Below, in pieces: positions 1,001 to 20,292 of a DNA stretch of 64,000 bases. Positions within the stretch are counted from its first letter, which is position 1, and each line of letters starts with the position of its first letter. The translations under genes were made by a program, and so were the position numbers. The DNA comes from an uncultured Bacteroidota bacterium (GTDB lineage Bacteria; Bacteroidota; Bacteroidia; AKYH767-A; OLB10). The notes beneath the pieces are model-generated. The model was not told the origin of the DNA. It did not search any database and was given only the letters and a program-made list of their open reading frames with translations. The stretch covers positions 5,685 to 69,684 of the forward strand of contig CAWFDA010000024.1 of NCBI GenBank assembly GCA_963814475.1, read 5' to 3'.

Positions 1001-1059
1001 CTGACGTTAGCGGTAATGGTTACGAACATTTATAAAAAAGTAATGGATACGATTGACCA

Positions 1060-1479
1060 ATGCAAATAAAAAAATTAATTATCATATTCCTTTTATTAAC
1101 AATTTCTAATTCTCTAGTTGCTCAGTCAATCGACTCAGAAATAGAGCGCATGAAAATTATAAAAGGACGCATAATTGATGGAAGAAGTGGTGAAGCATTG
1201 CCACTCGTGTTAGTAACGCTTTTCTTTTCTGAAATTGAATATAAAAGTGCAAGGGCAGACTTTGAGGGGTATTTTTATATCCATATTCCACAAGACAAAA
1301 TAATTAATGACAAATCAACTCTTGAATTTATAATTTTTGGTTACAATAAACTATTGATGGATATTCATTTTGACAAAATAAATAGTATGACTGTTAGTAT
1401 GACTGCTGATTCTAGTGGACAAATAACAAAAGAAGAATACGAGAGACTTTGTATAGAAAGATATGAATACGGAGAGTAG
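1060..1479 (+). CDS. secreted hypothetical protein with a CarboxypepD_reg-like beta-sandwich motif
   Basis: N-terminal signal peptide (LLLTISNSLVAQ). The GRIIDGRSGEALPLVLVTL motif is typical of carboxypeptidase-regulatory-like domains. Followed by a strong hairpin. Confidence 0.5.
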   Translation: MQIKKLIIIFLLLTISNSLVAQSIDSEIERMKIIKGRIIDGRSGEALPLVLVTLFFSEIEYKSARADFEGYFYIHIPQDKIINDKSTLEFIIFGYNKLLMDIHFDKINSMTVSMTADSSGQITKEEYERLCIERYEYGE

Positions 1480-1489
1480 GTCGTCAAAA

Positions 1490-1583
1490 CCACTACCGCT
1501 AACATTTAGCCGAGTAGACGAAAAAGCCCTAAGCAAAAGCCCCGTGTGTGTGCGGGGCTTTTTTGTTCTATTCGGTGTTGACT
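1490..1583 (+). other. attC-like site 1 (putative): R''-like CCACTACCGCTAAC, long imperfect hairpin, R'-like GTTGAC
   Basis: 1490-1503 is the reverse complement (13/14) of the block start GTTAGCGGTAATGG at 1006-1019. The outer stem ccgagtagacgaaaaagc / gcttttttgttctattcgg encloses the GC hairpin 1539-1558. Confidence 0.5.
1535..1566 (+). terminator. Rho-independent terminator-like hairpin (GCCCCG-N8-CGGGGC plus T-tract)
   Basis: The sequence is aaaaGCCCCGtgtgtgtgCGGGGCtttttt, directly downstream of ORF 1060..1479. The same hairpin is the tip of attC-like site 1. Confidence 0.6.
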
Positions 1584-1821
1584 GAAACCTGACTGCTAGG
1601 GTACAAAGTAGACCGGAAATTATTTTATCAATTTACTATAAGGAGATTATTTTTGATCGATTGGTGTGTGAATGTTTTCAAAATAGTAGTCGATGGAACA
1701 TTTTAAATGGGTTCATGTGTTATAAAGTGGTTGGAGAAGATGCATAATTCGTAACATGGCACTACCAATTCACACGACAACGTGTCGTTCAAAAAAATAT
1801 ATATGCTACACCGTTATCGTT

Positions 1822-2991
1822 TTAGTCGGATGGGATTTTGCCGGATTGCAGGAGCACGAGACGTCCTTTTTTACAACCGGGACAGCGCATAGGATCACGC
1901 CCGGTACGTTCGATCATTCGTTGGAGGAAAGGTATTTTAGTGAGAGGAGTATGTTGGGGTACTTGCATTTTTTGCAGAATGCGGTTCACACGAATTTTGC
2001 GTTGGTTGTTGCCTAGGTACCCATAGTGCCGTATTTTAACAAAACGAAAGGGTAGAAGATGCTGCTCGAACCGACGAATGAACTCAGGAGCATTCAAGGT
2101 CATCACTTTCTGTTTTGATTTGTCAGCATAATCCTTGTAAGTGAACGTTACATCACCCACATCATCCACCTCTTTGATTCGGTGATTGCTGATGGCTACT
2201 TTGTGGGTATACCTTCCCAGATACTCCATCACCTGGAGCGGTCCACCAAAAGGTTGTTTAGCATGTACGATCCATTTTGTTGCAAATAAGTTGTTTAGTA
2301 AACCTTTCCAGTTGAGCTCTTGTTCATGAGTAAGTTTTAGCTTTTGTTTTTCACGCAGTTTGCGAAGTTGTTTAAGGAAGTACGCTTTGTAGACTTTCTC
2401 CATGGCTTGTATAGGAAACAATACCCCATACTTTGCTTTTTTGGCCGCGATCCACTGATCATCCGCCGTAGCGCCACCACCACTTACAATACAATGCAGG
2501 TGCGGATGAAAACTGAGCGTTTGTCCCCAGGTATGCAGCACGGCGATGATTCCGGGTTTAGCGCCCATATATTTTTCATCATCTGCAAAACGAAGTAACG
2601 TATAAGAGGCAGCATCAAAGAGTAAATCGAACAATTGCTTTCGGTTGCCCATCACCAGAGGGTTTAACTCATGAGGCAGTGTAAATACCACATGGTAATA
2701 TTTACAGGGCAAGAGTTCTTTGAGCCGGGACTCGATCCACTCTTCTTTTTTGGAGTTGCCGCAATTGGGACAATGTCGGTTGCGACAACTGTGATATATT
2801 ACTTGCGTGTATTCGCACCCGTTAGCATTGCATGCGGTGTGGTGGTAACCCATCGCAGCAGTACGACACTGTTCAATTTTACTCAACGTGCGCACGGCGC
2901 CTACTCCAACATGAGCAGGCCACGACGGATACTTTTGCAATACGAGTTGAACAGAGGCGTGCGGGCGACCTACTTGACAGGCGGCTGACAT
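1822..2991 (-). CDS. IS91-family (Y2, rolling-circle type) transposase with N-terminal zinc-binding domain
   Basis: Cys cluster CRNRHCPNC, HTWGQTLSFHPHLHCIV (HUH-like), and YLGRYTHKVAISNHRI (Y2 motif region). Overlaps the upstream recombinase gene by 22 nt. Confidence 0.8.
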   Translation of the reverse strand: MSAACQVGRPHASVQLVLQKYPSWPAHVGVGAVRTLSKIEQCRTAAMGYHHTACNANGCEYTQVIYHSCRNRHCPNCGNSKKEEWIESRLKELLPCKYYHVVFTLPHELNPLVMGNRKQLFDLLFDAASYTLLRFADDEKYMGAKPGIIAVLHTWGQTLSFHPHLHCIVSGGGATADDQWIAAKKAKYGVLFPIQAMEKVYKAYFLKQLRKLREKQKLKLTHEQELNWKGLLNNLFATKWIVHAKQPFGGPLQVMEYLGRYTHKVAISNHRIKEVDDVGDVTFTYKDYADKSKQKVMTLNAPEFIRRFEQHLLPFRFVKIRHYGYLGNNQRKIRVNRILQKMQVPQHTPLTKIPFLQRMIERTGRDPMRCPGCKKGRLVLLQSGKIPSD

Positions 2992-3839
2992 AGCGAGCTC
3001 TGATTAACAGGAATATACTCCAGCGGATTTTTCTTGTGCAAGGCATCCAGCGGACTGACCAGTCCATATCGCTTTTTACTTTGCAGATGCAGGTAAATCA
3101 TGGTGGTTTCGATCTTGCTATGACCTAGTAGCTCCTTGATGGTGTGGATATCGGAACCGTTGTCGAGCATGTGGGTGGCAAAGGAATGGCGGAGGGTATG
3201 CGTATTGTATCCCAGATGAGCCAGATTGGCTTTGACCATGCATTGATGTAAGGCGTGTTGAATGCTGCGCACATGCATGGGTTGGGAAGGAGTTTGTCCT
3301 TCAAAAAGAAAGGTAACAGGCCGATGTTTCAGAAAATAACTGCGCAGGGTATTTAAACACGAATGCGACAAAATGGTAAAGCGATCTTTGCGACCTTTTC
3401 CCTGAATGATTTTAATGCGCATGTTTTTGGAATCGATGTTAACGAGCATTAACTTACTGCATTCCTCTAGTCGAATACCACTGGAATAGAACAACTCCAC
3501 CAGCGCGCGTTGCTTAATCGATTCACAGGCACCTAGTAGCACTAACATCTCCTCCTCACTCATTACATTGGGCAGTTTAAACTCCTTTTTAGGATAGAGT
3601 TTAGAGGGTAATTCGTAAGGTTTTTTTAAGATCTGTTTGTAAAAGAAGGATAAGCTTTGGGCCACACTGCGGCACTTGGCATGACTTGCGTTGAAGGTCT
3701 TTTTGAGGTACAAAATATACGCTTCAATCTGCTGCTGAGTGATCGAACCCGGGTCACAATCAGGATAATACTCGAACAGAAATCGGGCTTCCCTCACATA
3801 ATTACGAATACTCATCACCGAGTAGTTCCCGATGGACAT
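2970..3839 (-). CDS. tyrosine recombinase (Xer/IntI-related phage-integrase family) coupled to the IS91-like transposase
   Basis: Catalytic signature GIRLEE, GKGRKDR, HTLRHSFATHML, LLGHSKIETTMIYLH. The C-terminal SPLDAL resembles integron integrases, but the IntI-specific insertion is absent. Confidence 0.85.
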   Translation of the reverse strand: MSIGNYSVMSIRNYVREARFLFEYYPDCDPGSITQQQIEAYILYLKKTFNASHAKCRSVAQSLSFFYKQILKKPYELPSKLYPKKEFKLPNVMSEEEMLVLLGACESIKQRALVELFYSSGIRLEECSKLMLVNIDSKNMRIKIIQGKGRKDRFTILSHSCLNTLRSYFLKHRPVTFLFEGQTPSQPMHVRSIQHALHQCMVKANLAHLGYNTHTLRHSFATHMLDNGSDIHTIKELLGHSKIETTMIYLHLQSKKRYGLVSPLDALHKKNPLEYIPVNQSSLCQPPVK

Positions 3840-3959
3840 GGTGCCTGCAAGTTGCTCGAGGTATCCCTGAGCAGCCTCATTTAATTTTTTTTTAGTTTCA
3901 TGTTGTTATTTGTTTATATTTGTTGAAACATAAACAAAAATTCCCGAACCGAAGGGAGG

Positions 3960-4063
3960 GTTTCAGTTCAACAGGCAGTTGGACGCCAGGGCCGGCTGGT
4001 GCTATTTGTTTTTTTATTAAATTGGCAGCCGGCCCCGTCGCCAACTGCCAAACCGTTATGCGC
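3960..4063 (+). other. attC-like site 2 (putative)
   Basis: GTTTCAGTTCAAC (3960-3972) is the reverse complement, with one extra T, of the block start GTTGACTGAAAC (1577-1588). GC-rich imperfect stem 3974-4002 / 4024-4049, spacer aaacc, then GTTATGCGC (4055-4063). Confidence 0.55.
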
Positions 4064-4075
4064 AATAATTAATTT

Positions 4076-4774
4076 ATGAATGATAATGTACCTATTCGAG
4101 ATTTTATCTTCCCTTTAATTAAAGCCCGGACTCTCGATGAAGAGTTTGAATATGAAGAATTAATTGGAACTGGGTTCTTAATTGGAAATCGCGGATTTGC
4201 AATCACTGCAGCCCATGTGGTTGAGCAATTAATGGAAGGAGATAGAAATCTGGAAAATATTCAAGCCATTTTCGCTGATGACACCAAATGGTTTGGATAT
4301 TCAATTGAATGTTATGAAAAACATGAAACGGAAGATGTAGCTATTATCAAATTAAAGAACTTTAAAAGAGATTCATTTCTTAAAGTATTGTGCGACAAAC
4401 AACATGCTGCAATTGAATATCATTGTTGGGGGTATCCTCGTGATGTGGCGAAAGAACTCCAAAAGCTTGATGAAAATGCTATGGAACGACCTGATTTAAT
4501 ATTTACACAAGGGTATATCAGAAGAAGAATTAGTGGTCCATTATATCCAACGATATTGTTTAGAGGTGTCGAATTTTACGAATTAAGTGAAACTGTAGGT
4601 CAAGGCAATTCCGGTGGTCCAATAATTTTAAAAAGTCCACCATATGGTAAAGTAATAGGATTATATATTGGTGAAAAAGAACAAGGGAATATTGGTTATG
4701 CTGTAAGAGCAGAAGCATTTGCAAATTGGTCTCCAAAAATTCTTGAAAAGACTATTATTGAAGAGTGTGGATAG
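4076..4774 (+). CDS. cytoplasmic trypsin-like (S1/Trypsin_2-type) serine protease
   Basis: No signal peptide. Catalytic triad contexts are TAAHV (His), EDVAIIKL (Asp) and GQGNSGGPI (Ser). Confidence 0.75.
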   Translation: MNDNVPIRDFIFPLIKARTLDEEFEYEELIGTGFLIGNRGFAITAAHVVEQLMEGDRNLENIQAIFADDTKWFGYSIECYEKHETEDVAIIKLKNFKRDSFLKVLCDKQHAAIEYHCWGYPRDVAKELQKLDENAMERPDLIFTQGYIRRRISGPLYPTILFRGVEFYELSETVGQGNSGGPIILKSPPYGKVIGLYIGEKEQGNIGYAVRAEAFANWSPKILEKTIIEECG

Positions 4775-4931
4775 CTACTCGTAAAACGTCAGCTCAATAG
4801 CTGTTTGTAAATAGGCAATATCCTACCTTTTGCGCTACTTGCCTAATATTCATCGCATTAGAAAATAATTCATATTAGCGAATTACATGCAAATAGTTTG
4901 CTAATTTTTCATTTATTTTAAAAATAGAGCT

Positions 4932-4939
4932 TATATTTG
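4932..4939 (+). promoter_or_regulatory. Bacteroidota -7-type promoter motif TAnnTTTG (TATATTTG)
   Basis: Lies 29 nt upstream of the ATG at 4968. The surrounding AT-rich spacer contains repeated ttgcaaat/atttgca elements. Confidence 0.4.
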
Positions 4940-4967
4940 CAGAATAATTGCAAATAACCAATACTAA

Positions 4968-6311
4968 ATGATTGTCCAATTCTCAGTTAAAAATTATAGG
5001 TCGTTTAAAGACAACTCCATTCTAAATCTTGTTGCATCAAATTACGACAAGAATACTCGTGAAGATTTGAACATATTTAACGTCAGCAAGTATAAATTGC
5101 GACTATTGAAAAGTGCAGTTATATATGGTGCTAACGCAAGTGGAAAAAGTAAATATCTGGAAGCATTAATGTTTATGAGACAATTTGCTTTGAATTCTTC
5201 TAAGAATACGCAACAAGGTGAACCTATTGCAACAGAACCTTTTCGTTTGAGTTCTTCAACTTTAAAAGAGGGTAGTGAATTTGAAATCATATTTCTCTTG
5301 AAGAGTGAATTATATAGATATGGATTTGAAGTAAGTAATAAAAAGGTTAATGCTGAATGGCTCTATCAAAAAAGTAAATCAAAAGAAATAGAATTGTTTT
5401 ATCGAGAGTTTCAAGAAATTAAAACAAATGATATAAAAATTCCTAAAGCTAAAACATTGATTAAAGAGCAGCTGATAAGAGATAATGCATTATTTCTATC
5501 CGTACTTGCACAGTTTAATGACAAACAAGCTGAATTAATATTGGAATGGTTTCAAAATCTAAAAACTATCTCTGGTTTAAAAGAAGAAGGGTATCTAAAT
5601 GATACTATGAAAATGTCACAAGATAATAAACATAAAGAAAGAATTTTATCATTTTTAAAGAATGCAGATATCGGGATAGAAGATTTCAAATTAAAAAAGT
5701 ATGCATTTAATAATTTCGAAGAAGAAATTGAAAAAATGGAAGGGAATGAAAAACTAGATAATGAATTGAAAAGTGCATTGAAAGGCTTAAACTCATACTT
5801 TATGAGAACTTCGAAAGAAGAGAATAGAGAAGTATTTACCGATGTTATTATGTATCATAAACAATTTAATTCAAAAGGTAAATCAATTGGAAATGTTGAG
5901 TTTTCTTTAAAAGAGGATGAATCTTCCGGTACACGGAAGTATTTTGCAATGATTGGACAAATTATACAGGTAATTGAAACAGGTAGTGTTTTAGTAGTAG
6001 ATGAATTAGATTCAAAATTACATCCAAATCTAGTTTGCAGAATTGTTTCACTTTTCAATTCAAAAAAAAGTAATCCACATAATGCGCAAATAATTTTTAA
6101 TACACATGACACCAACCTCTTAAGTTCAGGATTATTTAGAAGAGATCAAATTTGGTTTACAAAACGGGACAACTTTGGGGCATCAATATTATATTCATTA
6201 GCTGATTTCAAAACTGATGAAGTCCGAAAAAATGAAGCTTTTGAAGAAAACTACATAAGGGGAAAGTATGGTGCCGTTCCTTTTCTTTCAGAATTTGATT
6301 ATTTTATTTAA
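4968..6311 (+). CDS. AAA_21 / ABC-type ATPase (AbiLi / AriA / OLD-ATPase-like)
   Basis: N-terminal FSVKNYRSFKD, Walker A GANASGKS, Walker B VLVVDELDSKLHP, H-loop IIFNTHD, and the RRDQIWFTKRD motif. A ~200 aa charged insertion lies between Walker A and Walker B. Confidence 0.8.
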   Translation: MIVQFSVKNYRSFKDNSILNLVASNYDKNTREDLNIFNVSKYKLRLLKSAVIYGANASGKSKYLEALMFMRQFALNSSKNTQQGEPIATEPFRLSSSTLKEGSEFEIIFLLKSELYRYGFEVSNKKVNAEWLYQKSKSKEIELFYREFQEIKTNDIKIPKAKTLIKEQLIRDNALFLSVLAQFNDKQAELILEWFQNLKTISGLKEEGYLNDTMKMSQDNKHKERILSFLKNADIGIEDFKLKKYAFNNFEEEIEKMEGNEKLDNELKSALKGLNSYFMRTSKEENREVFTDVIMYHKQFNSKGKSIGNVEFSLKEDESSGTRKYFAMIGQIIQVIETGSVLVVDELDSKLHPNLVCRIVSLFNSKKSNPHNAQIIFNTHDTNLLSSGLFRRDQIWFTKRDNFGASILYSLADFKTDEVRKNEAFEENYIRGKYGAVPFLSEFDYFI

Positions 6312-6457
6312 CGATTTCCTGAACTGCATATGAAAGAAAAGGAATTAAAGAAGAGCAAAAGGGAAATAAGAATCGAAATCGTTTTTCAGAAACGAAGTTT
6401 AAGCGTCAAACAAATTCTTCACTTGAAAGGACGCCACCCAGTCTTCAAGAAAATCCA

Positions 6458-7078
6458 TTGTATTTGATCTACTGTGAAGGCAAAAATACTGAACCTTCAT
6501 ATTTTAAGAAATTTAAACTCTCTACAGTCACAATCGAATCATTTGGTGAAGGGAAAAATACACTAACACTTGTGGAAAGGGCTAAACAGTTAGCAGATGA
6601 AGCTGAGAAGCAAAATAGGGAGTATGATAAAATCTGGTGTGTGTTTGATGCAGACCCTAAACCAGATAACCCTAATCAATTAAAAAATTTTAATGCAGCA
6701 ATTCAGAAGGCTCAAAAATACGGATTTGGAGTAGCATATTCTAATCAAGCATTTGAATACTGGTTACTATTGCATTTTGAAGACCATCAGGGTGGTGCAA
6801 TGAATAGGAATTTATATGGTGATAAGCTTAATTCTTATTTGCATAAACTTGGTATTGTTTACGAACATAATGGGAATAAAAATGTTAATACAGACTTATT
6901 TGAAATTCTAATGGAAATTGTAAAAACAGATAGAAATGGAAATAATTTTTCACGATCAGATATCGCGTGTATAAGAGCGGAAAAAATATTTAACCGGCTA
7001 GATCATACTAATCCTGGAAAAGAAGAATCTTCAACTTCAGTTTTTCAACTTGTTAAGGAGATTAAGAGCTTCATTTGA
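6458..7078 (+). CDS. RloB-like (Toprim-type) protein, AbiLii-like
   Basis: LIYCEGKNTEPSYF (Toprim Glu), VFDADP (DxD) and YSNQAFEYWLLLHF (RloB signature). The frame is open upstream to 6323, and an out-of-frame ATG sits at 6330. The true start is therefore uncertain: TTG at 6458, or a frameshifted N-terminus. Confidence 0.75.
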   Translation: MYLIYCEGKNTEPSYFKKFKLSTVTIESFGEGKNTLTLVERAKQLADEAEKQNREYDKIWCVFDADPKPDNPNQLKNFNAAIQKAQKYGFGVAYSNQAFEYWLLLHFEDHQGGAMNRNLYGDKLNSYLHKLGIVYEHNGNKNVNTDLFEILMEIVKTDRNGNNFSRSDIACIRAEKIFNRLDHTNPGKEESSTSVFQLVKEIKSFI

Positions 7079-7091
7079 ATACAGTTCGGAC

Positions 7092-7226
7092 CTACTGCGC
7101 ATAACAGCCGGTCTTGCGCAAGGCCGGCCTGAAGTTTTTTACTTTTATTAAATTGGTCCACCGAAACGGGAAAAACCTCCCGCTTCTGTGGACAAGGTAG
7201 GCCAGCCCTGCGCAAACCGGCGGAAC
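7092..7226 (+). other. attC-like site 3, 5' portion (R''-like GCGCATAAC plus nested hairpins), interrupted downstream by an intron and an IS
   Basis: GCGCATAAC (7097-7105) is the exact reverse complement of GTTATGCGC (4055-4063). Outer stem 7106-7129 / 7200-7220; inner stem about 7157-7171 / 7179-7193. The loop shares ttattaaattgg with site 2. Confidence 0.5.
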
Positions 7227-9196
7227 GTGTGTGTCCTGAATCAGGACAATCCAAATATTGAATTGAAAAGAATGCTGTACAAAAGATGGAAGACAGACTT
7301 TAGAGATGGGAAAACGAAAGCGCGGAGTCCAAGCGAACTGAATGGCTGGAATACCTATATCAAAATCTGAACGGCCTTCCAAAGACGACTTTCAGGAGTA
7401 GTCTTCAAACCACCTTATGCTGCATGGATGGAAACATCCTTTGTGGTGAACGATAAGGAAAAACGGGAGCATAAGACTCTTGTAGTTGTGTGATACGGAG
7501 CTGAAGAAATTAAATCAGCTGAATGAAGCCTCGTAAGCGGTTAGACAGTGCTGAAAGTAGACGGTTACGTTTGCGGCTACGACAAACAAAAAGTGTAAGG
7601 GAGACCTGATTTCTGTTTGCATAGCACTCGGGGTAAAGCAGGCAGGACTGTATCACAGGCTTTTGTACGGAACAGGAGAAGTCGATACTGTACTGGTAAC
7701 CAAGAATACGGGAAACAGTCATACAAGGATAGTATGAGATATCGGTGGCAGACTAAGCTCGTAGTAGTGATGAAGTTTCTGAAAGGAAATGGAGCGAAGG
7801 GCTTAGCTTGTTTAGTATTTCAATAATTTACAACCAGCAGCAATGGGATGATTGACTATTATGAAATAAAATCACAACCAATTACCAGAGTGATGGTATG
7901 GCAGGCATACAAGAAAGTACGCGCCAACAAAGGAAGTCGGGGCATAGACGATATGACTTGGCAATGGTTGGATAAAGAACCAGACGTAACCGAACTATAT
8001 CAAACTATGGAACCGTCTAACTTCTGGCAGTTATTTTCCAAAGCCAGTAAAAGAAGTACCCATTCCAAAGAAGAAAGGCGGGAGAGCGTAAATTAGGCAT
8101 TCCAACACTAATAGACCGTATCGCTCAACAAGTAGTCAGAAACACATTTAGAACGAATAGTAGAACCACGTTTTCACAACAGTTCGTTTGGCTATCGACC
8201 ATCGAAGAAATTGTCATCAGGCGGTAGCGCAATCATGCAAGAATTGCTTTCAACCATGACTTTGCTATTGACCTAGACATCAAAGGATTCTTCGACACAA
8301 TTGACCATGAGATTGCTGCATGAAAGCGGTAGCGTTTTACTGTCAAGGACAAATGGGTTTTGCTATACGTCGAACGGTGGCTCAAAGCAGGAATCGTGCA
8401 ACAGGACGGCAAGTATATAGACCGACTAACAGGCACTCCGCAGGGAGGTGTAATTAGTCCGCTACTGGCAAATATCTTTTTGCATGTAAGTTTTGACAAA
8501 TGGATGGATAAAAACCATCCTGAAAAGCCATTTGAACGTTATGCAGATGATGTGTGGTGCATTGCAAAACGGAGAAACAAGCGATATTTGTTTTAAAACA
8601 AATTGACGCAACGACTTCAGTAATTGCAAACTTAGGACTACATCCTGATCAAAACCAGAATTGTGAATCTTGCGAGGAATAGCGGAAAAGAAATACCCGA
8701 AAGAGTTATGATTTTCTGGGATTCACGATCCGACCACACTGGTGTAAGATAAATGGAGACAGCTGATGCTTATGCCAGGCATTTTCATAAGCGGGAAATC
8801 GGAGACTGCCGTACTTGGACAAATTGAGGGCAAATGCACATTCACAAGCGCCGAGTACCTATTGAAGAATTAGCGCAAAGATTTAGACCTATTCTTCAGG
8901 GAATAATGAATTACTACGGCAAGTTTTCAACAGGGCATCATCGGTACATCTGGAATCAGACTAAATGCAAGATTGCTTAAATGGGTAAAATGGGAGAAGG
9001 GGCTATACAAAATGGCATCTTTACGATGGCTAAGGAAAAAGTATAAGGAATCCCTTTACTTTTTCCACACTGGAAATTGGTACATCCATAAAGTATTCAT
9101 ACTTTGGTGATTCAAACAAGAAGAGCCGTGTGAATCGAGAGGTTCAAGCACGGTTCTGTGGGAACGTGAGGGTGAAATTCCCTCGCGTGACCCGAT
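7227..9196 (+). mobile_element. bacterial group II intron, class C-like, with decayed intron-encoded protein
   Basis: Starts GTGTG just 3' of a hairpin. Canonical 34-nt domain V lies at 9123-9156 (GAGCCGTGTGAATC-GAGA-GGTTCAAGCACGGTTC: GNRA loop, 2-nt bulge). A domain VI-like hairpin follows and the element ends ...CCCGAT. An RT ORF lies in domain IV. The 1970 nt length fits IIC introns. Boundaries are accurate to within a few nt. Confidence 0.8.
7848..9110 (+). pseudogene. group II intron reverse transcriptase/maturase, multiply frameshifted
   Basis: Fragments lie in three frames: QAYKKVRANKGSRGIDDMT (7848..), LGIPTLIDRIAQQVV (from 8092), TPQGGVISPLLANIFLH ... YADD (8360..8596), and a maturase-like tail ending at 9110. 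Confidence 0.8.
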
Positions 9197-9201
9197 CAGG
9201 T

Positions 9202-10946: not shown

Positions 10947-10960
10947 CTGACGTTAGCGGC
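10947..10960 (+). other. R'-like box of attC-like site 3 and start of the next block (CTGAC-GTTAGCGGC)
   Basis: GTTAGCGGC (10952-10960) is the exact reverse complement of GCCGCTAAC at 12584-12592. Confidence 0.5.
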
Positions 10961-11067
10961 AATGCCGGTTTAAATGACAATAATAGTAATTAATTAATAT
11001 GTTTAAGTTCTATTGGTATATCAGCGCTATGATGAAATGATTAATAATAAGTATAATACAAAATTCA

Positions 11068-12456: not shown

Positions 12457-12579
12457 TTCATGATTGCAATGGTTAATATTTAATTTATCAAATCATTAGG
12501 TTAATTTAGGCATTATATAATATCCATTTAATGAAAATAAATTAGTATATAAATTGATACTCGTAAATATTTAGATTGC

Positions 12580-12800
12580 ACATGCCGCTAACATAAAAAT
12601 TAATAGCAACAATTCTTTGAAGGGTAGTTTCCGTTCTTTAAGTTTGTGCAAGTAATAAGCGTCCTGCGTTTTGCAAAAAGCTTGCGCCGGATCGTTGCGG
12701 ATTGTTGGAGATTTTAATTGGCGCAATCTTTTTGCTGAGAGAGTTCTGCTATTTAATCCCTTCAAATTATTACTGCTTTAATTCCTTGTGCGTTATGGGC
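12580..12800 (+). other. attC-like site 4 (putative, unusually long at ~220 bp)
   Basis: Begins with R''-like GCCGCTAAC (12584-12592). Has an outer stem gcaacaattctttgaaggg / cccttcaaattattactgc and an inner stem gcaaaaagcttgcgcc / ggcgcaatctttttgc. Ends with GTTATGGGC (12792-12800). Confidence 0.4.
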
Positions 12801-12870
12801 AATAAAAACTAAACATGAAGAATTTATTAATAGTCGCCTTGGCAATTATTTCATGTAACCAAGCCGAAGC

Positions 12871-13482
12871 ATGAAAATCCTTTTGTTAAGCACCCTGATT
12901 TTATTGATGGGGAAATTATATGGCCAAAACCATGAGTTGGGAATCGAACTGGGCGCAGGGCAAACTATTATTGATAGGCATTCAACTTTTTTTATTCCTC
13001 CTTTACTTCAGGAAGAAGACAAATTCCGAAGGATAGGTGTTAACTATACTTATACCCCCGACAGTGCAGGATTTAGTTTGAAATCAGGAGTAATGTTTGA
13101 TCAGAGGAATTCACATGGTACCGTTTTTGATTACCTCCGTTTACCCGTTGGAATTGAATTTCATCCCGGAAATAAAATACAATTAATTCTTGGCCTCGGT
13201 ATTTACGGTAGTGTCTTATTATCCATAACAGATCGTACCACATACTACAATTATAATCCAGATGAATTTACTGCGTTTCAGATAGGAGGCAGTTATAGTG
13301 GAGGAATTGGGTTTCAACTGTCAAAAATGATAAACGTATCTGCTCAATATCAAAAAAATTTCGATATTTATGCGAATGTATGAAGAAGATAGACACTCCC
13401 CTGGTGGAATACCATATTCGTTTAATATCCGTGGATTTGAAGGATTTTTAAAAATTGGGGTTAAATGCAAAATCTTTAATTA
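12871..13482 (+). pseudogene. small outer-membrane beta-barrel-like protein, apparent frameshift near 13375
   Basis: ORF 12871..13383 has a signal peptide and alternating beta-strand patterns. A shifted frame continues with ...GFEGFLKIGVKCKIFN to 13482, which looks like a barrel C-terminus. Confidence 0.45.
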
Positions 13483-13685
13483 GCCAGTACCTAATCACTT
13501 GGAGAGAAATCATGATTTTATTTGATAAAATTTTTATCTCTAGGGACTAAACGTTCAATTGAACCATTCAATATTGATTCTTATATTTCTAATTCTAAAT
13601 CAGAATTAAAGGCATATTGGACATACACTGAATGAAATCATACTTAGAACCTGATATCCGAAGAATTTTACTGCCACTTACAAAC

Positions 13686-13759
13686 TTGTTTACAACAGGT
13701 GGGCATGTTTCTTTTTAATTATTATCTTTGGTATGCCCGCCCTGCGGCAATGGCGAACC
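13686..13759 (+). other. attC-like site 5, 5' portion (R''-like TTGTTTACAAC plus hairpin)
   Basis: 13686-13696 can pair with the block start GTTATGGGCAA (12792-12802) by 7 Watson-Crick and 3 G-T pairs. Hairpin aggtgggcat (13697-13706) / atgcccgccct (13733-13743). Confidence 0.35.
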
Positions 13760-14239
13760 GTGGAGTGTCTTGAATCACCTTCGTTTTATTGAAGGTGAAT
13801 GCTGTGTAAAACATGCCTGCCTGCAGCAATCAGGGAAGACTTTAAGAGGAGATAGAACGAAAACTCAGCCGAGCGAACTGAGCAAAGAATCACCATCAAC
13901 AGGCGAAAGAAATGAACTTCCGCTGACGCTTGTCAAAGCCTGTCCCGACGAACGTCGGGAAAGAGTTAGCAAACCACCTTAAAGTGCCTTGAAAGGAAAC
14001 CTTCTTTGTGCTGAACGTTAAGGAAAAACGAGAACAGCGATTCTTGTAGGTGATTATAGTCGAGCTGAATAAATTGAATCTCCTATTAAGCCTCGTAAGC
14101 GGAATAGACGATGTAGAAAACACTCTCTCACGTTTAGAGTGCAAAAAAAATGTGGAGGACAACCTGCCTGCTAGCCAAACGGCTAGTTCGGCAGGCAGGT
14201 GTGGGAAAGTAGGGGTGAAATTCCCCTGCGTGACCCGAT
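13760..14239 (+). mobile_element. internally deleted, ORF-less derivative of the group II intron at 7227-9196
   Basis: Colinear homology to 7204-7646 (for example gaacgNtaaggaaaaacg, gagctgaa, gaagcctcgtaagcgg, GCAGGCAGG). It then joins directly to the domain VI-like end (tgtgggaa..gtgaaattccc..gcgtgacccgat). It lacks the IEP and the canonical domain V. Confidence 0.7.
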
Positions 14240-14315
14240 TAGGCGTCATTGTAGAGCAACACCTTACAAACAGACACTTTTGGAAAAATATTACAAAACT
14301 AAAAAAAGTAACACA

Positions 14316-14921
14316 ATGAAAAAATATACACTTAAATTTTTGACCACATTAGTGATAGTGAGTCTTATGGGTTGTGGAAACTCCCAACAGAATTCAAACA
14401 ATAACAATAAAACAGATACAACTTCTAACCTAACTTTGACAAACAAAACCGATATGATTAAACATAAAATAACACCAAGCATTTGGGTTGAGACGACAGA
14501 TGCCAAAGCAGTAGTGGATTACTATTTATCAATATTTAAAGATGGTAAATTAAAAGAGCATCACAAATATAAAAATCCACCGGAGGCAGGTGGAGGTGAC
14601 TTTGAAACTGCCATTATTGAAATTGCAGATATGGAATTAAGTATTTTAGCAGCAGGCCCATTTTTTAAATTTAATGAATCAGTTTCGTTTGTCATTAACT
14701 GCAAAGACCAAGCAGAAGTAGATTATTATTGGAATGCCATAACTGCAAACGGAGGACAAGAAAGTTCTTGTGGGTGGTGTAAAGACAAATATGGCTTATC
14801 GTGGCAGGTTGTTCCTGTTGAATATTTTGACCTTATTAACAGCAACGACCCAATCGTAAGAGAAAAAGCGATGAAAAATACACTTAAACAGAAAAAGTTA
14901 ATACTATCAGAACTTAAATAA
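14316..14921 (+). CDS. VOC-superfamily protein (3-demethylubiquinone-9 3-methyltransferase / PhnB-like domain), lipoprotein
   Basis: Lipobox SLMGC. Motifs KITPSIWV, CKDQAEVDYYWNAI and CGWCKDKYGLSWQVVP are typical of PF06983-type proteins. Confidence 0.75.
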   Translation: MKKYTLKFLTTLVIVSLMGCGNSQQNSNNNNKTDTTSNLTLTNKTDMIKHKITPSIWVETTDAKAVVDYYLSIFKDGKLKEHHKYKNPPEAGGGDFETAIIEIADMELSILAAGPFFKFNESVSFVINCKDQAEVDYYWNAITANGGQESSCGWCKDKYGLSWQVVPVEYFDLINSNDPIVREKAMKNTLKQKKLILSELK

Positions 14922-14952
14922 AATTAAAAGAAAAGTCTCAAATTTTAAAGAA

Positions 14953-15378
14953 ATGGAAATAGCATCTCAAATAAAAGAGTTAATTAAAAGCCAAGTCGAG
15001 CCAAAACAGAGTGAAATGCAAGAATTACACAATCTCATTCTTAAATTGATGCCAAACTCTAAACTATGGTATTTTGACGGTAAAAATGAAGATGGCAAAC
15101 AAGTAGCCCACCCAACTATTGGTTATGGTAATTACACGATAACGTATAAAGACGGAAGCACTAAAGAATTTTTCAGAATTGGGTTATTGGCTAATCCGAA
15201 TGGACTTGCAGTTCATATAATGGGTATGGAGGATAAAAAATTCTTAATAGACACATACAGTAAAACAATAGGCAAAGCAAAAGTTGGTAGTTATGGTATC
15301 GTATTTAAGTCGATAAAAGAAATTAATTTAGAAATACTGACAGAAGCAATTCGACATAGGGCTGAAACCAATAATTAA
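14953..15378 (+). CDS. DUF1801 (YdhG-like) domain protein
   Basis: Size and overall pattern recognised by eye; separated by only 31 nt from the upstream gene. Confidence 0.4.
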   Translation: MEIASQIKELIKSQVEPKQSEMQELHNLILKLMPNSKLWYFDGKNEDGKQVAHPTIGYGNYTITYKDGSTKEFFRIGLLANPNGLAVHIMGMEDKKFLIDTYSKTIGKAKVGSYGIVFKSIKEINLEILTEAIRHRAETNN

Positions 15379-15388
15379 AAATAACGAA

Positions 15389-15468
15389 CGCCTAACAACA
15401 CCTCCTAAGTAAAGCAGTTTATTGTGCTACGAAATCGCCAACTTCTTGTAGCTGCCAAACGTGATGCC
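15389..15468 (+). other. attC-like site 6 (putative, weak stem)
   Basis: CGCCTAAC (15389-15396) is the reverse complement (7/8) of ATTAGGCG at 14238-14245. The end ctgccaaacGTGATGCC resembles ctgccaaaccGTTATGCGC of site 2. Confidence 0.35.
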
Positions 15469-16009
15469 TCATACTAAAACGACCGTAATCAAAACGAAAT
15501 TGACAACAAAAAATAGACATATCGTAAAGACACTCGGTTCGGCAATTGACATAAACGGACTACCTGAAACTATTTGGAATAACATAACCAATGTAAAAAT
15601 TGAACAGTTTTCTGACCCGACACTTTTCAAACTTCTTGACATTCCCAAGCCGTTAAGGGCAGAAATTGTTTCAGAAGGACAAGGGGGCAGAAGAATTGCA
15701 TACTTCGACAGTGGGAAAAAGTTCATACAAAAAATATTGGTATGGAAGCCTTTGACAGAATATTCATTTTCATTCAACCCTGAAAAAGGTTTCAAAGTTT
15801 TGTACTTTTTTGAACTTTCCGAAGGAGTTTTTCAAATCCCAAATGGAGCTTATAATTTAACAACAACAGGACAAACAACCAGATTAAAACTTACAACAAC
15901 TTATAGTATTGACAGAAGACTATATTTTTTATTCAATATTCCTGCAAGATTAATCCTTAAAGCGTTTCAACGCTATTTGTTGACTTCAATAAAAAAAAAC
16001 TCTGAATAA
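15464..16009 (+). CDS. SRPBCC-superfamily ligand-binding protein
   Basis: Size and beta-grip-like pattern. Adjacent to a second SRPBCC gene, with the stop and the next start abutting. Confidence 0.5.
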   Translation: MPHTKTTVIKTKLTTKNRHIVKTLGSAIDINGLPETIWNNITNVKIEQFSDPTLFKLLDIPKPLRAEIVSEGQGGRRIAYFDSGKKFIQKILVWKPLTEYSFSFNPEKGFKVLYFFELSEGVFQIPNGAYNLTTTGQTTRLKLTTTYSIDRRLYFLFNIPARLILKAFQRYLLTSIKKNSE

Positions 16010-16468
16010 GTGGAAGGAATAAAATTTACAGAGACAATCATAATTGACGACAATGCTGAAATGGTTTTTGATTTCACGCAAGACTACAGCAATCGACTTA
16101 AATGGGACACATTTTTAAAAAGAGCTGATCTTATTGACGGGGCATTAAATGCTGACAAAGGTGTTAAAGCATATTGTGTTGCAAAAAATGGTATTGGTAT
16201 GGTGACAGAATACGTCACATTCAACAGACCAAAAGTGACAGCTATCAAAATGACAAAGGGGCCTTACTTGTTCAAATCATTTTTAGGTTCGTGGACATTT
16301 AAAGAATTGCCTGATAATAAAACAGAAGTGATTTTTTTATATTCGTTCTCGCTTAAGTTTCCATTTAACCTATTGACAAAGTTTATAAAAAACAACTTGC
16401 AGTCAAATGTGAAACAGCGATTAATTGATCTCAAAAACAAGATCGAGAATGAAAGCACGAAGACATAG
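16010..16468 (+). CDS. SRPBCC-superfamily (polyketide cyclase/dehydrase-like) protein
   Basis: About 150 aa with a GTG start. The RLKWDTF and FKSFLGSWTF motifs are typical of this fold family. Confidence 0.55.
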   Translation: MEGIKFTETIIIDDNAEMVFDFTQDYSNRLKWDTFLKRADLIDGALNADKGVKAYCVAKNGIGMVTEYVTFNRPKVTAIKMTKGPYLFKSFLGSWTFKELPDNKTEVIFLYSFSLKFPFNLLTKFIKNNLQSNVKQRLIDLKNKIENESTKT

Positions 16469-16594
16469 CATCGGTTTGGCAATATGGCGTCTGAAGTGCT
16501 TCTATGAAACTTTTGTGCAAGGTTCAACAACAGTAATTCTATAGAACTTTTGTGCTAAAAATCCGCCACATCGCCAAGCCGAAAACGTTAGTGG
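16465..16594 (+). other. attC-like site 7 (putative)
   Basis: Stem cggtttggcaatatggcg (16472-16489) / cgccacatcgccaagccg (16564-16581), spacer aaaac, then GTTAGTGG (16587-16594). The loop carries a direct repeat ctatNaaacttttgtgc. Confidence 0.45.
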
Positions 16595-16608
16595 TCATGG
16601 TAACCGCA

Positions 16609-17606
16609 CTATAAAGACAACCTACTTTCTTTGTTGTACTTCGCCTTATAATCTATTGGAGACAAACCCGTTACTCGACTGAAGACTTCTCTGAACGCTT
16701 TAGCATCGTTGTAACCCACTTCATACATTATTTCATTCACTGTTTTTCGAGTAGTTTCAAACATCTTTTTGGCAGCTTCATTTTTACTCTTTGCAAATAA
16801 TCCAGCGGTGTAAAACCTGTTGCTTTTATAAATCTTCGATCAAAATTTCTTCTGCCAATGTTTAGATCTGATGACAATTTTTCGATGGAAATTTTATCTT
16901 GGTAGTTTTCTTCAAGAAATTTTTGAGCCATCAAAACTCATCATCATTATGTTTTTTATGTCCGTTGAATATTGAAAATTCGGCTTGTAAATTTCTGTCT
17001 AAATCTATTTGAAAATATTTGGCACAATGAATAGCCGTTTGTCTGTCATAAAATTTTTCAACCAAATACATCAACAAATGTAAAAACGAATAGGCACCAC
17101 CATTGGTGTAAATTCCGTTTTCATCAGTGATTAATTGGTCTGTTTGCAAATTCACATCAGGATACAATTCTTTAAAATTTTCAGTTAAAGCCCAATGAGT
17201 AGAACAAGTTTTCCCTGCAAGGATTCCGGAAGAAGCCAACATAAAACTTCCTGCACACATACTTGCGATTTCTGCACCTTGCTTATATTGTTTCGCTACC
17301 CAATCTATTAATAGCTTATTGTTTTTAGACGCCGTTTCATAACTACGAATTAAAGATGCAGGAATGATGATAAGATTGGTTTTATCTATTTCATTAATAG
17401 CAACTTGATGCTTAATGGAAAGTAAATTGTTATTCAAAAAATCATTTTTTGTAGCACCAACCAACTCAATTTTAAAAATGGCTTTCTCGATTCTTTCTCG
17501 CAAAATAATTGTTCGCTTCGCTAAAAACTTGATATGCACCTACAATACAAGCAATTGTACTCATATTGGTTTGTTCATCTGGAACCAGAATGCTCAAATG
17601 TTTCAT
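16609..17606 (-). pseudogene. GlxA-type AraC-family regulator (DJ-1/PfpI domain plus AraC HTH), at least 3 frameshifts
   Basis: Fragments are MKHLSILVPDEQTNMSTIACIVGAYQVF (from 17606), ORF 16931..17539 (DJ-1/PfpI, SMCAGSF), ORF 16737..16934 (HTH 1), and MFETTRKTVNEIMYEVGYNDAKAFREVF (HTH 2, ending at 16609). Confidence 0.75.
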
Positions 17607-17726
17607 TTCCAATTTTGTGACAAAGTTAAGTAAAACAAATGTCTAAATCAACCCGTTATTATGTCTAAAAGCACCTTATGAAATCACGTTTTAGACATTA
17701 CCTTTGTAAAATAAAATTTTATTAAA

Positions 17727-18206
17727 ATGATAACAACAGAATTATTTGTAAAAATGGTCATTGACAGATGGAATGGTTCCATTGTTAATTTAAACAAACA
17801 CTTGAATACATTGACCGATGAGCAATTGCAAAAAGAAATTGCACCAGGCAAAAACAGAGGAACGTATTTGTTGGGACATCTTATTGCTGTTCACGATGAT
17901 ATGTTAATACTGTTGGATATGGGCGAAAAATTATATCCTGAATTATTCGAGCCTTTTATTAAACAAGCCGATAAAGTGGCTACTCAAACGCCAACAGTTG
18001 CTGAATTGAGGGAAATGTGGGAAAAACAAAATGCACATTTGCAAGAAAAATTTGAAGAACTAAAACCCGAAGAATGGTTTGAAAAACATACTGCCGTTTC
18101 TGAAGAAGATTTTGCAAATGAACCGCATCGCAACAAATTGAACATCATCATTACTAGAACTTCACATTTACAGTACCACACCGGACAAATTGTTTTACTC
18201 AATTAA
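17727..18206 (+). CDS. DinB-family (DinB_2) metal-dependent four-helix-bundle protein
   Basis: His triad context: LLGHLIAVHD ... SHLQYHTGQI. Confidence 0.6.
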   Translation: MITTELFVKMVIDRWNGSIVNLNKHLNTLTDEQLQKEIAPGKNRGTYLLGHLIAVHDDMLILLDMGEKLYPELFEPFIKQADKVATQTPTVAELREMWEKQNAHLQEKFEELKPEEWFEKHTAVSEEDFANEPHRNKLNIIITRTSHLQYHTGQIVLLN

Positions 18207-18218
18207 AAATAACAACAT

Positions 18219-18648
18219 ATGACAAATCAAAATTTTCAATACAGTTTTACCACTCTCAAAAACACAAACGAAGTCTTTGCACATTTAATTAATCCTAAAA
18301 ATTGGTGGGTAGGTTTATTTGGCGAAACAATAGAAGGAAAAAGCGAAGAGCGTTAACGATGAATTTTCTTTCAGAGCAGGTGATGGTGTGCATTATTCCA
18401 ATCAAAAATTAATAGAATTTGTTGCCGACAAAAAAATAGTTTGGTTGGTTACCGAAAGTAATTTATCGTTCTTAAAAAACACCAACGAATGGGCAGGAAC
18501 AAAAATTTGTTTCGACATTGAAAAAGTTGGCGACAAAACCAAAATAACATTTACACACGATGGTTTAATTCCGCAAATTGAATGTTATGGTGGTTGCTCC
18601 AATGCTTGGACACAGTACCTGCAAAATCTTCAAGAATATCTCCAATGA
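18219..18648 (+). pseudogene. SRPBCC / AHSA1-like protein, frameshifted near 18350
   Basis: MTNQNFQYSFTT...WWVGLFGETIEGKSEE runs into a stop. It continues in another frame with FSFRAGDGVHYSNQKLIEFVADKKIVWLV. It is a paralog of the next gene. Confidence 0.6.
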
Positions 18649-19232
18649 AATATTTAATTCCAACTATTTTAATCATAGCATTGCTTTCTTGTAATAAAAG
18701 AATAACAACATCAAATCAAAATACAAAAATGAACAATACATCAAGTAAAAATTATACCACTACAATCTCAGTTGATAAAGACATTTCAAGTGCATTTAAT
18801 TCCATAAAAAATATCAGAGGTTGGTGGTCGGAAGCAATTGAAGGAAATACAGACAAGGTTGGCGAAACATTCTTTTATCATTATAAAGATGTGCATTTAT
18901 GCAAAATAAAACTCATTGAAATGGTTGCCGATAATAAATTGGTGTATCAGGTAATAGACAATGAATTTAATTTTACAAAAGACAAAACAGAATGGATTAA
19001 TACTAAACTCATTTTTGATTTATCGACCGAAGGAAACAAAACCAAAATAGTATTTACGCACGAAGGTTTAGTGCCAGACTACGAATGTTATAATGTTTGC
19101 AACGATGCTTGGACAAGCTATATACAAGGAAGTTTGAAAAATTTTATTGAAACAGGAATAGGCAAACCAAACGGAAAAGAAGGTGGCTTGAATGCCGAAT
19201 TGGTTAAAAAATGGGGATTGCCAAATAAATAA
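18645..19232 (+). CDS. SRPBCC / AHSA1-like lipoprotein
   Basis: Lipobox LLSCN. The stretch IRGWWSEAIEGNTDKVGETFFYHYKD ... FTHEGLVPDYECYNVCNDAWTSYI parallels the upstream paralog. Confidence 0.6.
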   Translation: MKYLIPTILIIALLSCNKRITTSNQNTKMNNTSSKNYTTTISVDKDISSAFNSIKNIRGWWSEAIEGNTDKVGETFFYHYKDVHLCKIKLIEMVADNKLVYQVIDNEFNFTKDKTEWINTKLIFDLSTEGNKTKIVFTHEGLVPDYECYNVCNDAWTSYIQGSLKNFIETGIGKPNGKEGGLNAELVKKWGLPNK

Positions 19233-19234
19233 AA

Positions 19235-19377
19235 CAACGATACGCTATCAAGGTATTGCCAAAATGGGGTTTGATGGAAGTATATCAACGGATGAGCTTC
19301 TATCAGCTTTTGTGTTATTTTTGTACTGGCAGTTTTCAAATGCCCCCACTTCGTCAATACCCAAACAGTTGGGGCAC
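19235..19377 (+). other. attC-like site 8 (putative, poorly resolved)
   Basis: Ends cccaaacaGTTGGGGCAC, the same layout as the other sites. I could not trace the internal pairing convincingly. Confidence 0.3.
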
Positions 19378-19476
19378 ATGCTGAAACACGGCAGCTATAC
19401 CTCAATTGACAAAATTAAGCAGGAGTAACATTACAGAAACTAAAATCGAACTTGTTCAATTTAAAAAGTTAATGAA

Positions 19477-20184
19477 ATGAAAACAAAGCAACAAGCGAAT
19501 GAAATGGAGAATCTTCTAACCCCTCCCTTCAAACAGAGATTTATTCGGCTTGCCCAAAGCGTCATCGCGGTCCAGATATTATTTACCATTGGATGGATCA
19601 CTGCTGGGTTATTACAGGGGGACGGATATTCCATTGCGCACCATGATATCAGTGACATGGGTGCAAAGACAGCGCCTAACCCATGGATGTATATGTTACC
19701 CACGGGCATAACCGGTATCGTGACAATTTGGTTTAGCATCGGAGCATTGCGACCTGTTCTAAAAATCTCAGGTATTCGAAGACCGATTGGTGCCTGGTTC
19801 CTCGCTCTCTCGCTTATGGGACTCGACAATTTCAGCGATATGTTCTTCCAACTCGATTGCCGTGCAATTGACCCCGGATGTACACAAGAAGTTGCGGCTG
19901 CATCTGTACAAGGTAAACTCCATATTATTGTGGCCTTGGTAAGTGTGTTGTTTACAGTGATAGCACCCTTTGTGTTATCCAGACATATGCGTAATCTTGA
20001 TGGCTGGAAAGATCTCAAATCGAAAACGATCATTTTTGGAATATTCTTCTTGGTGGCTTTGATTGGTTACATAATTACGGACGGAAGCTATGGCCATGGA
20101 TACATTCAACGAATCATGTGTCTGATGCTCTCGTTTGGAATAATCGTGCTAGCACTCAGGGTAAATAAGATTGCGTCTTCGTAA
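19477..20184 (+). CDS. DUF998-like polytopic membrane protein
   Basis: Six predicted TM segments and an HHDISDMG motif. GC content is visibly higher than in neighbouring genes. Confidence 0.5.
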   Translation: MKTKQQANEMENLLTPPFKQRFIRLAQSVIAVQILFTIGWITAGLLQGDGYSIAHHDISDMGAKTAPNPWMYMLPTGITGIVTIWFSIGALRPVLKISGIRRPIGAWFLALSLMGLDNFSDMFFQLDCRAIDPGCTQEVAAASVQGKLHIIVALVSVLFTVIAPFVLSRHMRNLDGWKDLKSKTIIFGIFFLVALIGYIITDGSYGHGYIQRIMCLMLSFGIIVLALRVNKIASS

Positions 20185-20263
20185 TTCGGTAAACCTGACC
20201 AGACTCTTATGAAAACCTATGACTAGGTTAGGAAATTAGAAACAAAACAAAAGAAGGCACGAT

Positions 20264-20292
20264 GCCCCAACACGGGTTTTGCGTTAGTGGGC
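20264..20292 (+). other. terminal R''/R' box pair (GCCCCAAC ... GTTAGTGGGC), apparent right end of the array
   Basis: GCCCCAAC (20264-20271) is the exact reverse complement of GTTGGGGC (19368-19375). It is followed 11 nt later by GTTAGTGGGC. I saw no further GTTAG/GTTAT boxes downstream. Confidence 0.4.

Follow-up and report, generated by a model that had tools for sequence, protein, structure and literature searches.

A candidate integron-like cassette array with its own hairpin-site family and a mobile recombinase-transposase unit in an uncultured Bacteroidota bacterium

How was the left 20 kb of a 64,000-nt stretch of an uncultured Bacteroidota genome (GenBank assembly GCA_963814475.1, contig CAWFDA010000024.1, positions 5,685 to 69,684 of the forward strand; the whole stretch is called the window) put together, given that its genes lie in consecutive blocks that begin with a GTT-type box and are separated by hairpin-like elements? 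An initial annotation took this region for a tiled array of integron-like gene cassettes with no visible integron integrase (IntI). The tiling of cassette-like units was borne out; on balance, 1-20.3 kb is regarded as a chromosomal integron-like mobile cassette array with a site family of its own, and not as a canonical IntI/attC integron. A unit would consist of TT plus a box, genes, the complementary box followed by AAC, a long hairpin with imperfect pairing, a spacer of 4-6 nt and G. One unit, int-Y2, carries an IntI-like tyrosine recombinase (int) and an IS91-family Y2 transposase (IS, insertion sequence). Loci other than the window are given by their L numbers.

Boxes: the seven pairs of the initial annotation were all found, exact in letters and coordinates. 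The first 12 nt of each start, counted from its GTT, were set against the reverse-complemented last 12 nt of each end, counted back from its AAC (nine starts × nine ends); own-block pairs gave 71/108 matches, permuted pairings a mean of 50.0 (sd 4.7; P ~1.5e-5, 200,000 permutations), and the start and end of a block are thus complementary to each other beyond those of other blocks. Six of the nine pairs are strong; blocks 15461-16474 and 16587-19251 have partial pairs only, and pair 5 (12792 vs 13686) is weak (7/12) and was struck from the list. Pair 6 (ATTAGGCG at 14238), given initially as 7/8, is real and was corrected: intron 2 (13762-14239), a group II intron without an open reading frame (ORF), sits at GT|T of its box (the bar marks the point of insertion or crossover), and its excision restores GT|TAGGCG, so that the pair reads GTTAGGCG / CGCCTAAC, 8/8. 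Splitting of a hairpin recombination site at a conserved G|TT leaves complementarity of this kind, and this part of the initial interpretation was upheld.

The longest unanchored reverse-complement match between junctions did not discriminate, and the box signal is therefore positional. Any two junctions commonly share unanchored matches of 8-10 nt, and generic scanners for AAC-hairpin-GTT were either too strict or gave 3.3 matches per 10 kb of control DNA and were abandoned; both observations would suit an array without cassette mobility, in which the elements are terminators or palindromes of the repetitive extragenic (REP-like) type and the boxes arise by chance or low complexity. That some elements fold no better than shuffled sequences (see below) would suit it as well. 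It is contradicted by the permutation test, positive in two independent loci (the second being L119, below), and by three further results given in their places.

A junction matrix of 24 nt (10 nt + GTT + 11 nt), built from the window junctions, scored 15.6-22.8 at seven block starts (15.7-21.3 with AT-rich background); the intron interrupts the start at 14240. Beyond 20.4 kb the best score was 12.9, in keeping with the initial remark that no such boxes occur after 20.3 kb, and the right end of the array is placed near 20.3 kb on this ground. With junctions left out one at a time, two of them outscored every position in 304 kb of background. The matrix was weak on L119.

Hairpins: by reading, the window sites share one layout, namely AAC, 0-4 nt, a stem and a spacer of 4-6 nt on the GTT side only, with a basal helix of 8-14 bp. 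Compared with shuffles, the folds of 3974-4049 (z -5.1), 7107 to the restored 3' arm (z -4.6), 1490-1583 (z -3.5), 16471-16582 (z -2.3) and 12586-12792 (z -1.8) are more stable; five of the nine inter-block elements thus reach z <= -1.8, two of them only at -2.3 and -1.8, and the other four do not.

Unit int-Y2: 1,802 of 8,000 scored candidates are homologues at E <= 1e-30, and among the 120 listed nearly all lie on IS-sized contigs of 1-4 kb, as a multicopy element would. The gene order is always int, then Y2. In 12 copies, found in 11 loci, GTTGAAC(C/T)GAA is the exact start of the common sequence and the flanks differ; in the eight copies whose far end was recovered, the unit ends exactly with GGTCAAC, a hairpin and CT(T/A)AATGTT. 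Ends that are exact and identical in 12 contexts speak against an immobile array. In the window, 1504-1576 (minus strand) is a homologue of this terminal hairpin, with compensatory changes in the stem, and hence the hairpin belongs to int-Y2 and the unit is inverted in the array. It had been assigned to block 1, and block 2 had been listed as an ordinary cassette; block 2 is instead a widespread self-contained unit, with complementary boxes GTTGAACCGAACCC and GGGTCTCGGTCAAC. The int side always faces the AAC side of an array-oriented site, and in both the window and L119 the unit parts the AAC box of a cassette from its hairpin; cassette 1 of the window has been parted from its own hairpin in this way.

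Recombinase: the statement that no IntI is visible holds for an IntI with its specific insertion, and had overlooked the IntI-like gene of block 2. There is no IntI in the window and no integron integrase with the insertion adjoins the array there; tblastn with IntI1 (a query that itself scores 799 bits against the NCBIfam equivalog and is 100% identical to copies on plasmids) matched 2970-3839 alone, in an alignment that skips IntI1 residues ~206-249. No other tyrosine recombinase is present in the 64 kb. Against the NCBIfam integron integrase model the recombinase gave 168.5 bits in two stretches (cut-off 265); this model and that of XerA score about equally, both under cut-off. Its closest solved relative, by sequence, is an integron integrase, VchIntIA (2A3V; E 5e-31, two stretches, IntI residues 173-246 skipped), and it retains the C-terminal SPLD motif that is invariant in the IntI alignment made here. 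In IntI, the specific insertion makes contact with extrahelical attC bases and is indispensable for integron function. It is not fully conserved within the integron-like subgroup of tyrosine recombinases (PMC8138268).

Search for attC sites: a covariance model (R2) was made from 16 real attC sites (class 1 arrays and three environmental integrons) and replaced a trimmed model (R1) that was insensitive to long loops. R2 recovers ~75 unseen attC sites (E <= 0.01) in 80 metagenome IntI loci, nearly all on the expected strand upstream of IntI and including a locus of 35% GC. In the window it gave no hit: the best E was 1.2, outside the array, and the best-formed hairpin, a2, reached 5.5 bits; int-Y2 loci gave nothing either. 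The initial annotation had proposed attC recombination and had named a lack of attC model hits as evidence against it, and the elements are accordingly not canonical attC sites. Nor does the array fit the definition of a CALIN (cluster of attC sites lacking integron integrases, with at least two model-detected attC sites and no IntI nearby), there being no attC hits and an IntI-like gene inside the array.

Model of the int-Y2-linked sites: a second covariance model (R3) was trained on eight sites from L119, L120 and L122 only and on none of the window, since a MAFFT alignment of the window sites had misaligned their 5' ends. Of the 21 pairs in its consensus, 11 show compensatory changes, and this covariation supports the hairpin fold in the related external sites. 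In the window R3 matched a7 (40.3 bits, E 5.2e-7), a8 (32.2 bits, E 3.4e-5) and a2 (27.0 bits, E 4.9e-4) on the cassette strand, with ends at the boxes of the initial annotation, and in part the intron-cut site a3 (11.9 bits); a7, a8 and a2 are thereby members of the hairpin-site family that R3 defines. Sequence comparison further shows a7 to be clearly homologous to a site beside int-Y2 in a Flavisolibacter metagenome-assembled genome (MAG; L120). In int-Y2 loci outside the training set R3 gave 20-77 bits, mostly on the strand opposite int-Y2, a few weaker matches lying on the int-Y2 strand; in 926 kb of controls (including 67 IntI loci and class 1 integrons) it gave one match, E 0.98. By these reciprocal results, each of the two site families goes with one of the two recombinase types, in a clean split. 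That a cross-locus model matches exactly at predicted boundaries is likewise hard to explain by chance boxes. One marginal R3 match elsewhere in the window (55789-55912; 21.4 bits, E 0.009) lies in a 530-aa ORF on the other strand, has no AAC/GTT ends and is probably due to chance. In L114 (505-3019) two int-Y2 units stand head to head, their int genes divergent and 754 nt apart, with R3 sites between them on both strands.

These models also bear on the possibility that the array represents a CALIN or the distal stretch of an ordinary chromosomal integron, the canonical IntI lying to the left of the window or elsewhere and the sites being a divergent lineage flavour of attC. Like a classic integron, the array has GTT/AAC cores, a split basal helix and short co-oriented ORFs, the window begins inside an IS with the upstream DNA unseen, and the junction matrix also matches the true 3' ends of attC sites in IntI arrays L083, L078 and L044, so that the 3' half of the window sites does resemble attC at the level of sequence. 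Against this, R2 gave no match with E < 1 in the 64 kb and at most 5.5 bits on the best hairpin, R3 finds no such sites beside any of the 67 IntI genes, a low-GC IntI locus (L102) has canonical attC sites, and the window holds no IntI remnant; this origin is considered improbable. Integrons are known from Bacteroidota and are rare there (PMC9024848, PMC8618304), which counts in its favour; the initial remark that they are rarely described in this phylum is right as to rarity and passed over these reports. Searches for a Bacteroidota IntI with the IntI1 query returned close relatives only, and a search with representatives and a low-GC profile returned IntIs of other phyla; the IntI loci of Latescibacterota and Cloacimonadota had few or no cassettes. 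Many of the representatives reach 400-517 aa because ~100-170 aa precede the IntI core at the N-terminus, an extension that is either real or due to start-codon calls. In two real integrons that served as control (L029 and L031, IntI P0209), the cassette starting GTTATCTTCTTTGATATAAGTG is the first after attI in L031 and stands later in L029, which is textbook cassette reshuffling.

Second array: in L119, part of a metagenome contig of 183 kb (41% GC), two int-Y2 units share a strand and small ORFs follow one another in runs along the opposite one; the intergenic elements are laid out like the window sites. Own-unit boxes include GTTGTGCGC/GCGCACAAC, GTTATGCGC/GCGCATAAC, GTTACATGC/GCATGTAAC and GTTAGCCGC/GCGGCTAAC. 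In the permutation test the true pairing gave 57 (permuted 43.8 +/- 4.2), the maximum, equalled only by swaps of three identical units. The latter are copies of an ORF-less unit, GTTGCCTGCC...GGCATGCAAC plus hairpin (9735-9555, 9374-9194 and 7617-7437; ~300-360 bp, 180 nt up to its AAC), which behaves like a non-coding cassette. The same unit at three positions of one array is not expected of fixed terminators or palindromes; taken with the permutation tests, the exact unit ends and the boundary matches of R3, it makes an array without cassette mobility strongly disfavoured and highly improbable.

Intruding elements: two group II introns and two IS1182-family elements occur in the array. Both introns lie on the strand of the cassette ORFs, each 3' of a hairpin and spacer, at AACGT| (inside an IS terminus) and AACCGT|TAGGCG; intron 2 is 77-86% identical to parts of intron 1. 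The intron of a control class 1 integron (L028) also follows a hairpin and sits at GT|T (GAATTGT|intron|TAGGCG), on the bottom strand, and the bottom-strand orientation of IIC-attC introns is known (PMC3001079). The reverse transcriptase (RT) remnants of the window have 33-37% identity to the RT of the L028 intron, and the Rfam D1-D4 subtype differs. The GT|T geometry after a hairpin is therefore common to both groups, but the window introns, on the cassette strand and with a divergent RT, do not belong to group IIC-attC, which is defined by the bottom strand of attC and a monophyletic RT lineage. The two IS1182-family elements of the window differ from each other and both end beside CG|TTAGCGG; like IS1111-attC elements they are parasites of the sites, but they are not of the IS1111 family. 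A third insertion at the same CG|TTAGC motif was seen in L115 (int-side flank), and L117 has the empty site, ACCTGTTCGTTAGCAG. All three IS1182-family insertions (window 1001-1013 and 10947-10959; L115) are at the CG of ..CGTTAGC(G/A)G, two of them are different elements in opposite orientations, and the CG is apparently duplicated; this suggests a subgroup of IS1182 that targets the start box of these cassettes. From the letters at 7222-7232 and 9191-9200, the IS would have come first, at GGAA[CG]TTAGCGG, and intron 1 afterwards, at hairpin + AACGT, T being the first base of the IS. Introns and IS1182 elements inserted precisely at G|TT mark the junction as a structured hotspot.

Mechanism: units would be joined by site-specific recombination at the conserved G|TT at the base of the folded hairpin site. 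The crossover would split the basal helix and so leave unit-specific complementary boxes at the two ends, and the origin of the boxes as a product of such a crossover is well supported. The int-Y2 unit would insert on the opposite strand, on the AAC side of a resident site, and would come to lie inverted, pointing away from the cassettes in much the same way as the intI gene of an integron. The 289-aa recombinase borne by this cassette is probably the cassette recombinase, to judge by its co-occurrence with the sites, its kinship with IntI, its divergent position and the lack of another tyrosine recombinase in the 64 kb. IS91 transposases produce circular single-stranded intermediates (PMC5714925); by analogy, such an intermediate of the Y2 transposase would let the hairpin site fold.

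The transposase has the Y2 HUH domain and the zinc-binding N-terminus of the IS91 family. Classical IS91 elements have no inverted repeats and use GTTC or CTTG as target. The unit, by contrast, carries complementary boxes, and the flanks before it are CAAT, CCAT and TCTT among others, not GTTC or CTTG. It is like IS91/ISCR in its full-length Y2 transposase, its multicopy nature and a hairpin-rich terminus downstream of the transposase gene, and differs by the complementary boxes (12-14 nt), the added IntI-like recombinase and the insertion at G|TT of a hairpin site.

A different division of labour would leave the array integron-like and make int-Y2 one more mobile element that targets the sites, the cassettes being moved by an unlinked recombinase, either a further one or the host Xer. 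Three unrelated element types at the same junction indicate that the sites attract parasites, the unit acts as a multicopy IS that breaks assemblies, and in L120 its transposase side adjoins ordinary genes. On the other hand, the ends of the unit share the box and AAC-hairpin-GTT layout of the cassettes, no non-IntI protein found here is closer to IntI than its recombinase, the unit diverges from runs of cassettes once in the window and at two places in L119, and, as said, no other tyrosine recombinase is encoded in the window; such a role is rated rather unlikely.

Several points weigh against an integron-like array served by int-Y2. Elements 13686-13760, 15389-15467, 19240-19374 and 20264-20300 fold no better than shuffles, and R3 did not detect a4, a5, a6 and a9; only three of the nine window sites are significant with it. 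R2 is an approximation of attC of our own and not the model of IntegronFinder. The link between int-Y2 and arrays is one of co-occurrence only, seen in the window, in L119 as the single long locus and on nine short contigs, and int-Y2 may be a mere parasite of the sites, like the introns and ISs. Several cassettes are multi-gene, the cassette order is the same in two Logan samples of the same organism, and no recombination event was observed.

The features of the array are collected in Table 1.

Table 1. Features of the cassette array, in order of position in the window.
Feature	Position	Strand	Details
IS1182-family IS, 3' part	1-1004	+	cut by window start; ends ...CTGA beside CG|TTAGCGG; Pfam DDE_Tnp_1_6, NCBIfam IS1182
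Cassette 1	1006-1503	+	start box GTTAGCGGTAATGG; ORF 1060-1479, 139 aa, CarboxypepD_reg-like; end box CCACTACCGCTAAC
int-Y2 unit	1504-3972	-	2.47 kb; own hairpin site 1504-1576; box 1577-1588; start box 3960-3972; inverted relative to the array
IS91-family Y2 transposase	1822-2991	-	Pfam Y2_Tnp 5.7e-55, Zn_Tnp_IS91 6e-28; NCBIfam IS91 417.7 bits (cut-off 125)
IntI-like tyrosine recombinase	2970-3839	-	289 aa; 22-nt overlap with the Y2 transposase gene; one operon
Site a2	3966-4063	+	AAC 3970-3972, stem 3974-4049, spacer AAACC, GTT 4055
Cassette 3	4055-7105	+	trypsin-like protease 4076-4774, AAA_21 ATPase 4968-6311, RloB-like protein 6458-7078; boxes GTTATGCGC / GCGCATAAC
Site a3	7099-7228	+	3' end ...GGCGGAACG|T parted from TAGCGG (10954) by intron and IS
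Group II intron 1	7229-9196	+	Rfam RF01999, RF00029; broken RT, fragments in two frames; directly after a3 hairpin and spacer
Second IS1182-family element	9197-10950	-	frameshifted transposase 9884-10843 and 9295-9696; inserted at CG of AACGTTAGCGG
Cassette 4	10952-12592	+	secreted protein with type IX secretion system (T9SS) sorting, 11068-12456; boxes GTTAGCGGC / GCCGCTAAC
Site a4	12584-12798	+	215-nt AT-rich hairpin; 5-nt spacer after AAC, 8-nt spacer before GTT
Cassette 5	12792-13696	+	outer-membrane beta-barrel protein 12871-13383; weak end box
Site a5	13686-13761	+	short hairpin ending ...GGCGAACCGT; intron 2 cuts at GT|T
Group II intron 2	13762-14239	+	Rfam RF01999; ORF-less; degenerate 5' end GGAGUG; ends CCCGAT
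Cassette 6	14240-15396	+	3-dmu-9_3-mt protein (PF06983) 14316-14921; DUF1801 protein 14953-15378; boxes GT|TAGGCG / CGCCTAAC, 8/8 without the intron
Cassette 7	15461-16474	+	182-aa protein without assignment and SRPBCC protein; partial boxes GTGATGC / GCATC
Site a7	16463-16595	+	near relative in L120
Cassette 8	16587-19251	+	multi-gene: frameshifted DJ-1/PfpI gene with downstream fragment (minus strand), DinB, two SRPBCC paralogues (one broken)
Site a8	19247-19375	+	
Cassette 9	19368-20271	+	DUF998 membrane protein 19477-20184; GC 43%; boxes GTTGGGGC / GCCCCAAC
Terminal site remnant, array right end	20264-20296	+	GCCCCAAC, 11 nt, GTTAGTGG; no hairpin

Gene content and host: the ORF of cassette 1 is small and lipoprotein-like. 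The genes of cassette 3 (4076-7078) have the look of an anti-phage defence module, and the trio of protease, AAA_21 and RloB-like genes forms one contig of 3.2 kb in two Logan samples. In cassette 8 the DJ-1/PfpI gene and one SRPBCC paralogue are broken by frameshifts (16737-17539 and 18220-18648), which suggests decay of unused cassettes; the fragment downstream of the DJ-1/PfpI gene is AraC-like, by reading alone. Most units have a GC content of 31-34% (backbone 33.5%), the exceptions being int-Y2 (44%) and the last cassette. The Bacteroidota -7 box, TAnnTTTG, is not enriched on the plus strand: 13 occurrences in 21 kb vs ~14 expected by our own estimate. The organism occurs in sequencing runs ERR15459710 and ERR12035938. 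T9SS sorting domains and the nearest genomes confirm a genome of Bacteroidota type; the cytochrome at 21517-22404 has 79% identity to that of a Bacteroidetes MAG and 66% to that of a Crocinitomicaceae MAG, and the two-gene pair 20948-22404 is all the synteny held in common with relatives. An internal tandem-like repeat (47054-47351; 75% identity, 33-nt offset) among overlapping ORFs is unconnected with the array.

Comparison with known systems: the array is like integrons in its tandem, mostly co-oriented cassettes, each closed by a putative imperfect hairpin that runs from ...AAC to GTT..., in the G|TT crossover that leaves cassette-specific boxes, in an integrase gene divergent from the cassettes and in cassette content (small SRPBCC, DinB and PF06983 3-dmu-9_3-mt proteins, a defence-like module). 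It is unlike them in that the window sites fail R2, with 0-4 nt after AAC vs ~5, a basal helix of 8-14 bp vs 7 and no bulge at the canonical position; in that the recombinase, without the IntI-specific insertion, has an HUH Y2 transposase as its partner, no distinct attI being evident; and in that the int-Y2 pair is itself cassette-like and mobile, with several copies per array (L119). The pdif modules (XerC/XerD) of Acinetobacter plasmids are also tiled, use sites for Xer-type recombinases and mostly have no adjoining integrase; a pdif site is a duplex of 28 bp, and successive sites alternate in orientation, whereas those of the window are putative hairpins of 75-215 nt in one orientation with module-specific boxes. 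A literature search found nothing on IS91-linked recombinases with cassette arrays, an absence that is no proof.

It is proposed tentatively, at less than even confidence, that Bacteroidota possess a further lineage of integron-like platforms for gene capture, independent of IntI, in which an IntI-related tyrosine recombinase devoid of the attC-reading insertion and an IS91-type HUH transposase, the latter as the source of single-stranded circles, would act on a distinct family of AAC-hairpin-GTT sites and build chromosomal cassette arrays. The pair, in itself a mobile cassette on this view, would start or lengthen arrays, and the finders now in use would overlook all of it. The interest lies chiefly in the fact that standard integron tools would miss arrays of this type. 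Integron biology has been built on IntI as its sole enzyme family and attC as its sole kind of site, and surveys depend on models of these two. If the proposal is true, gene capture at hairpin sites arose or diversified beyond IntI in a phylum where integrons look rare; the so far unexplained pairing of a tyrosine recombinase with an IS91 transposase would have a testable role, and cassette pools, including defence-like modules, would be under-counted in environmental Bacteroidota.

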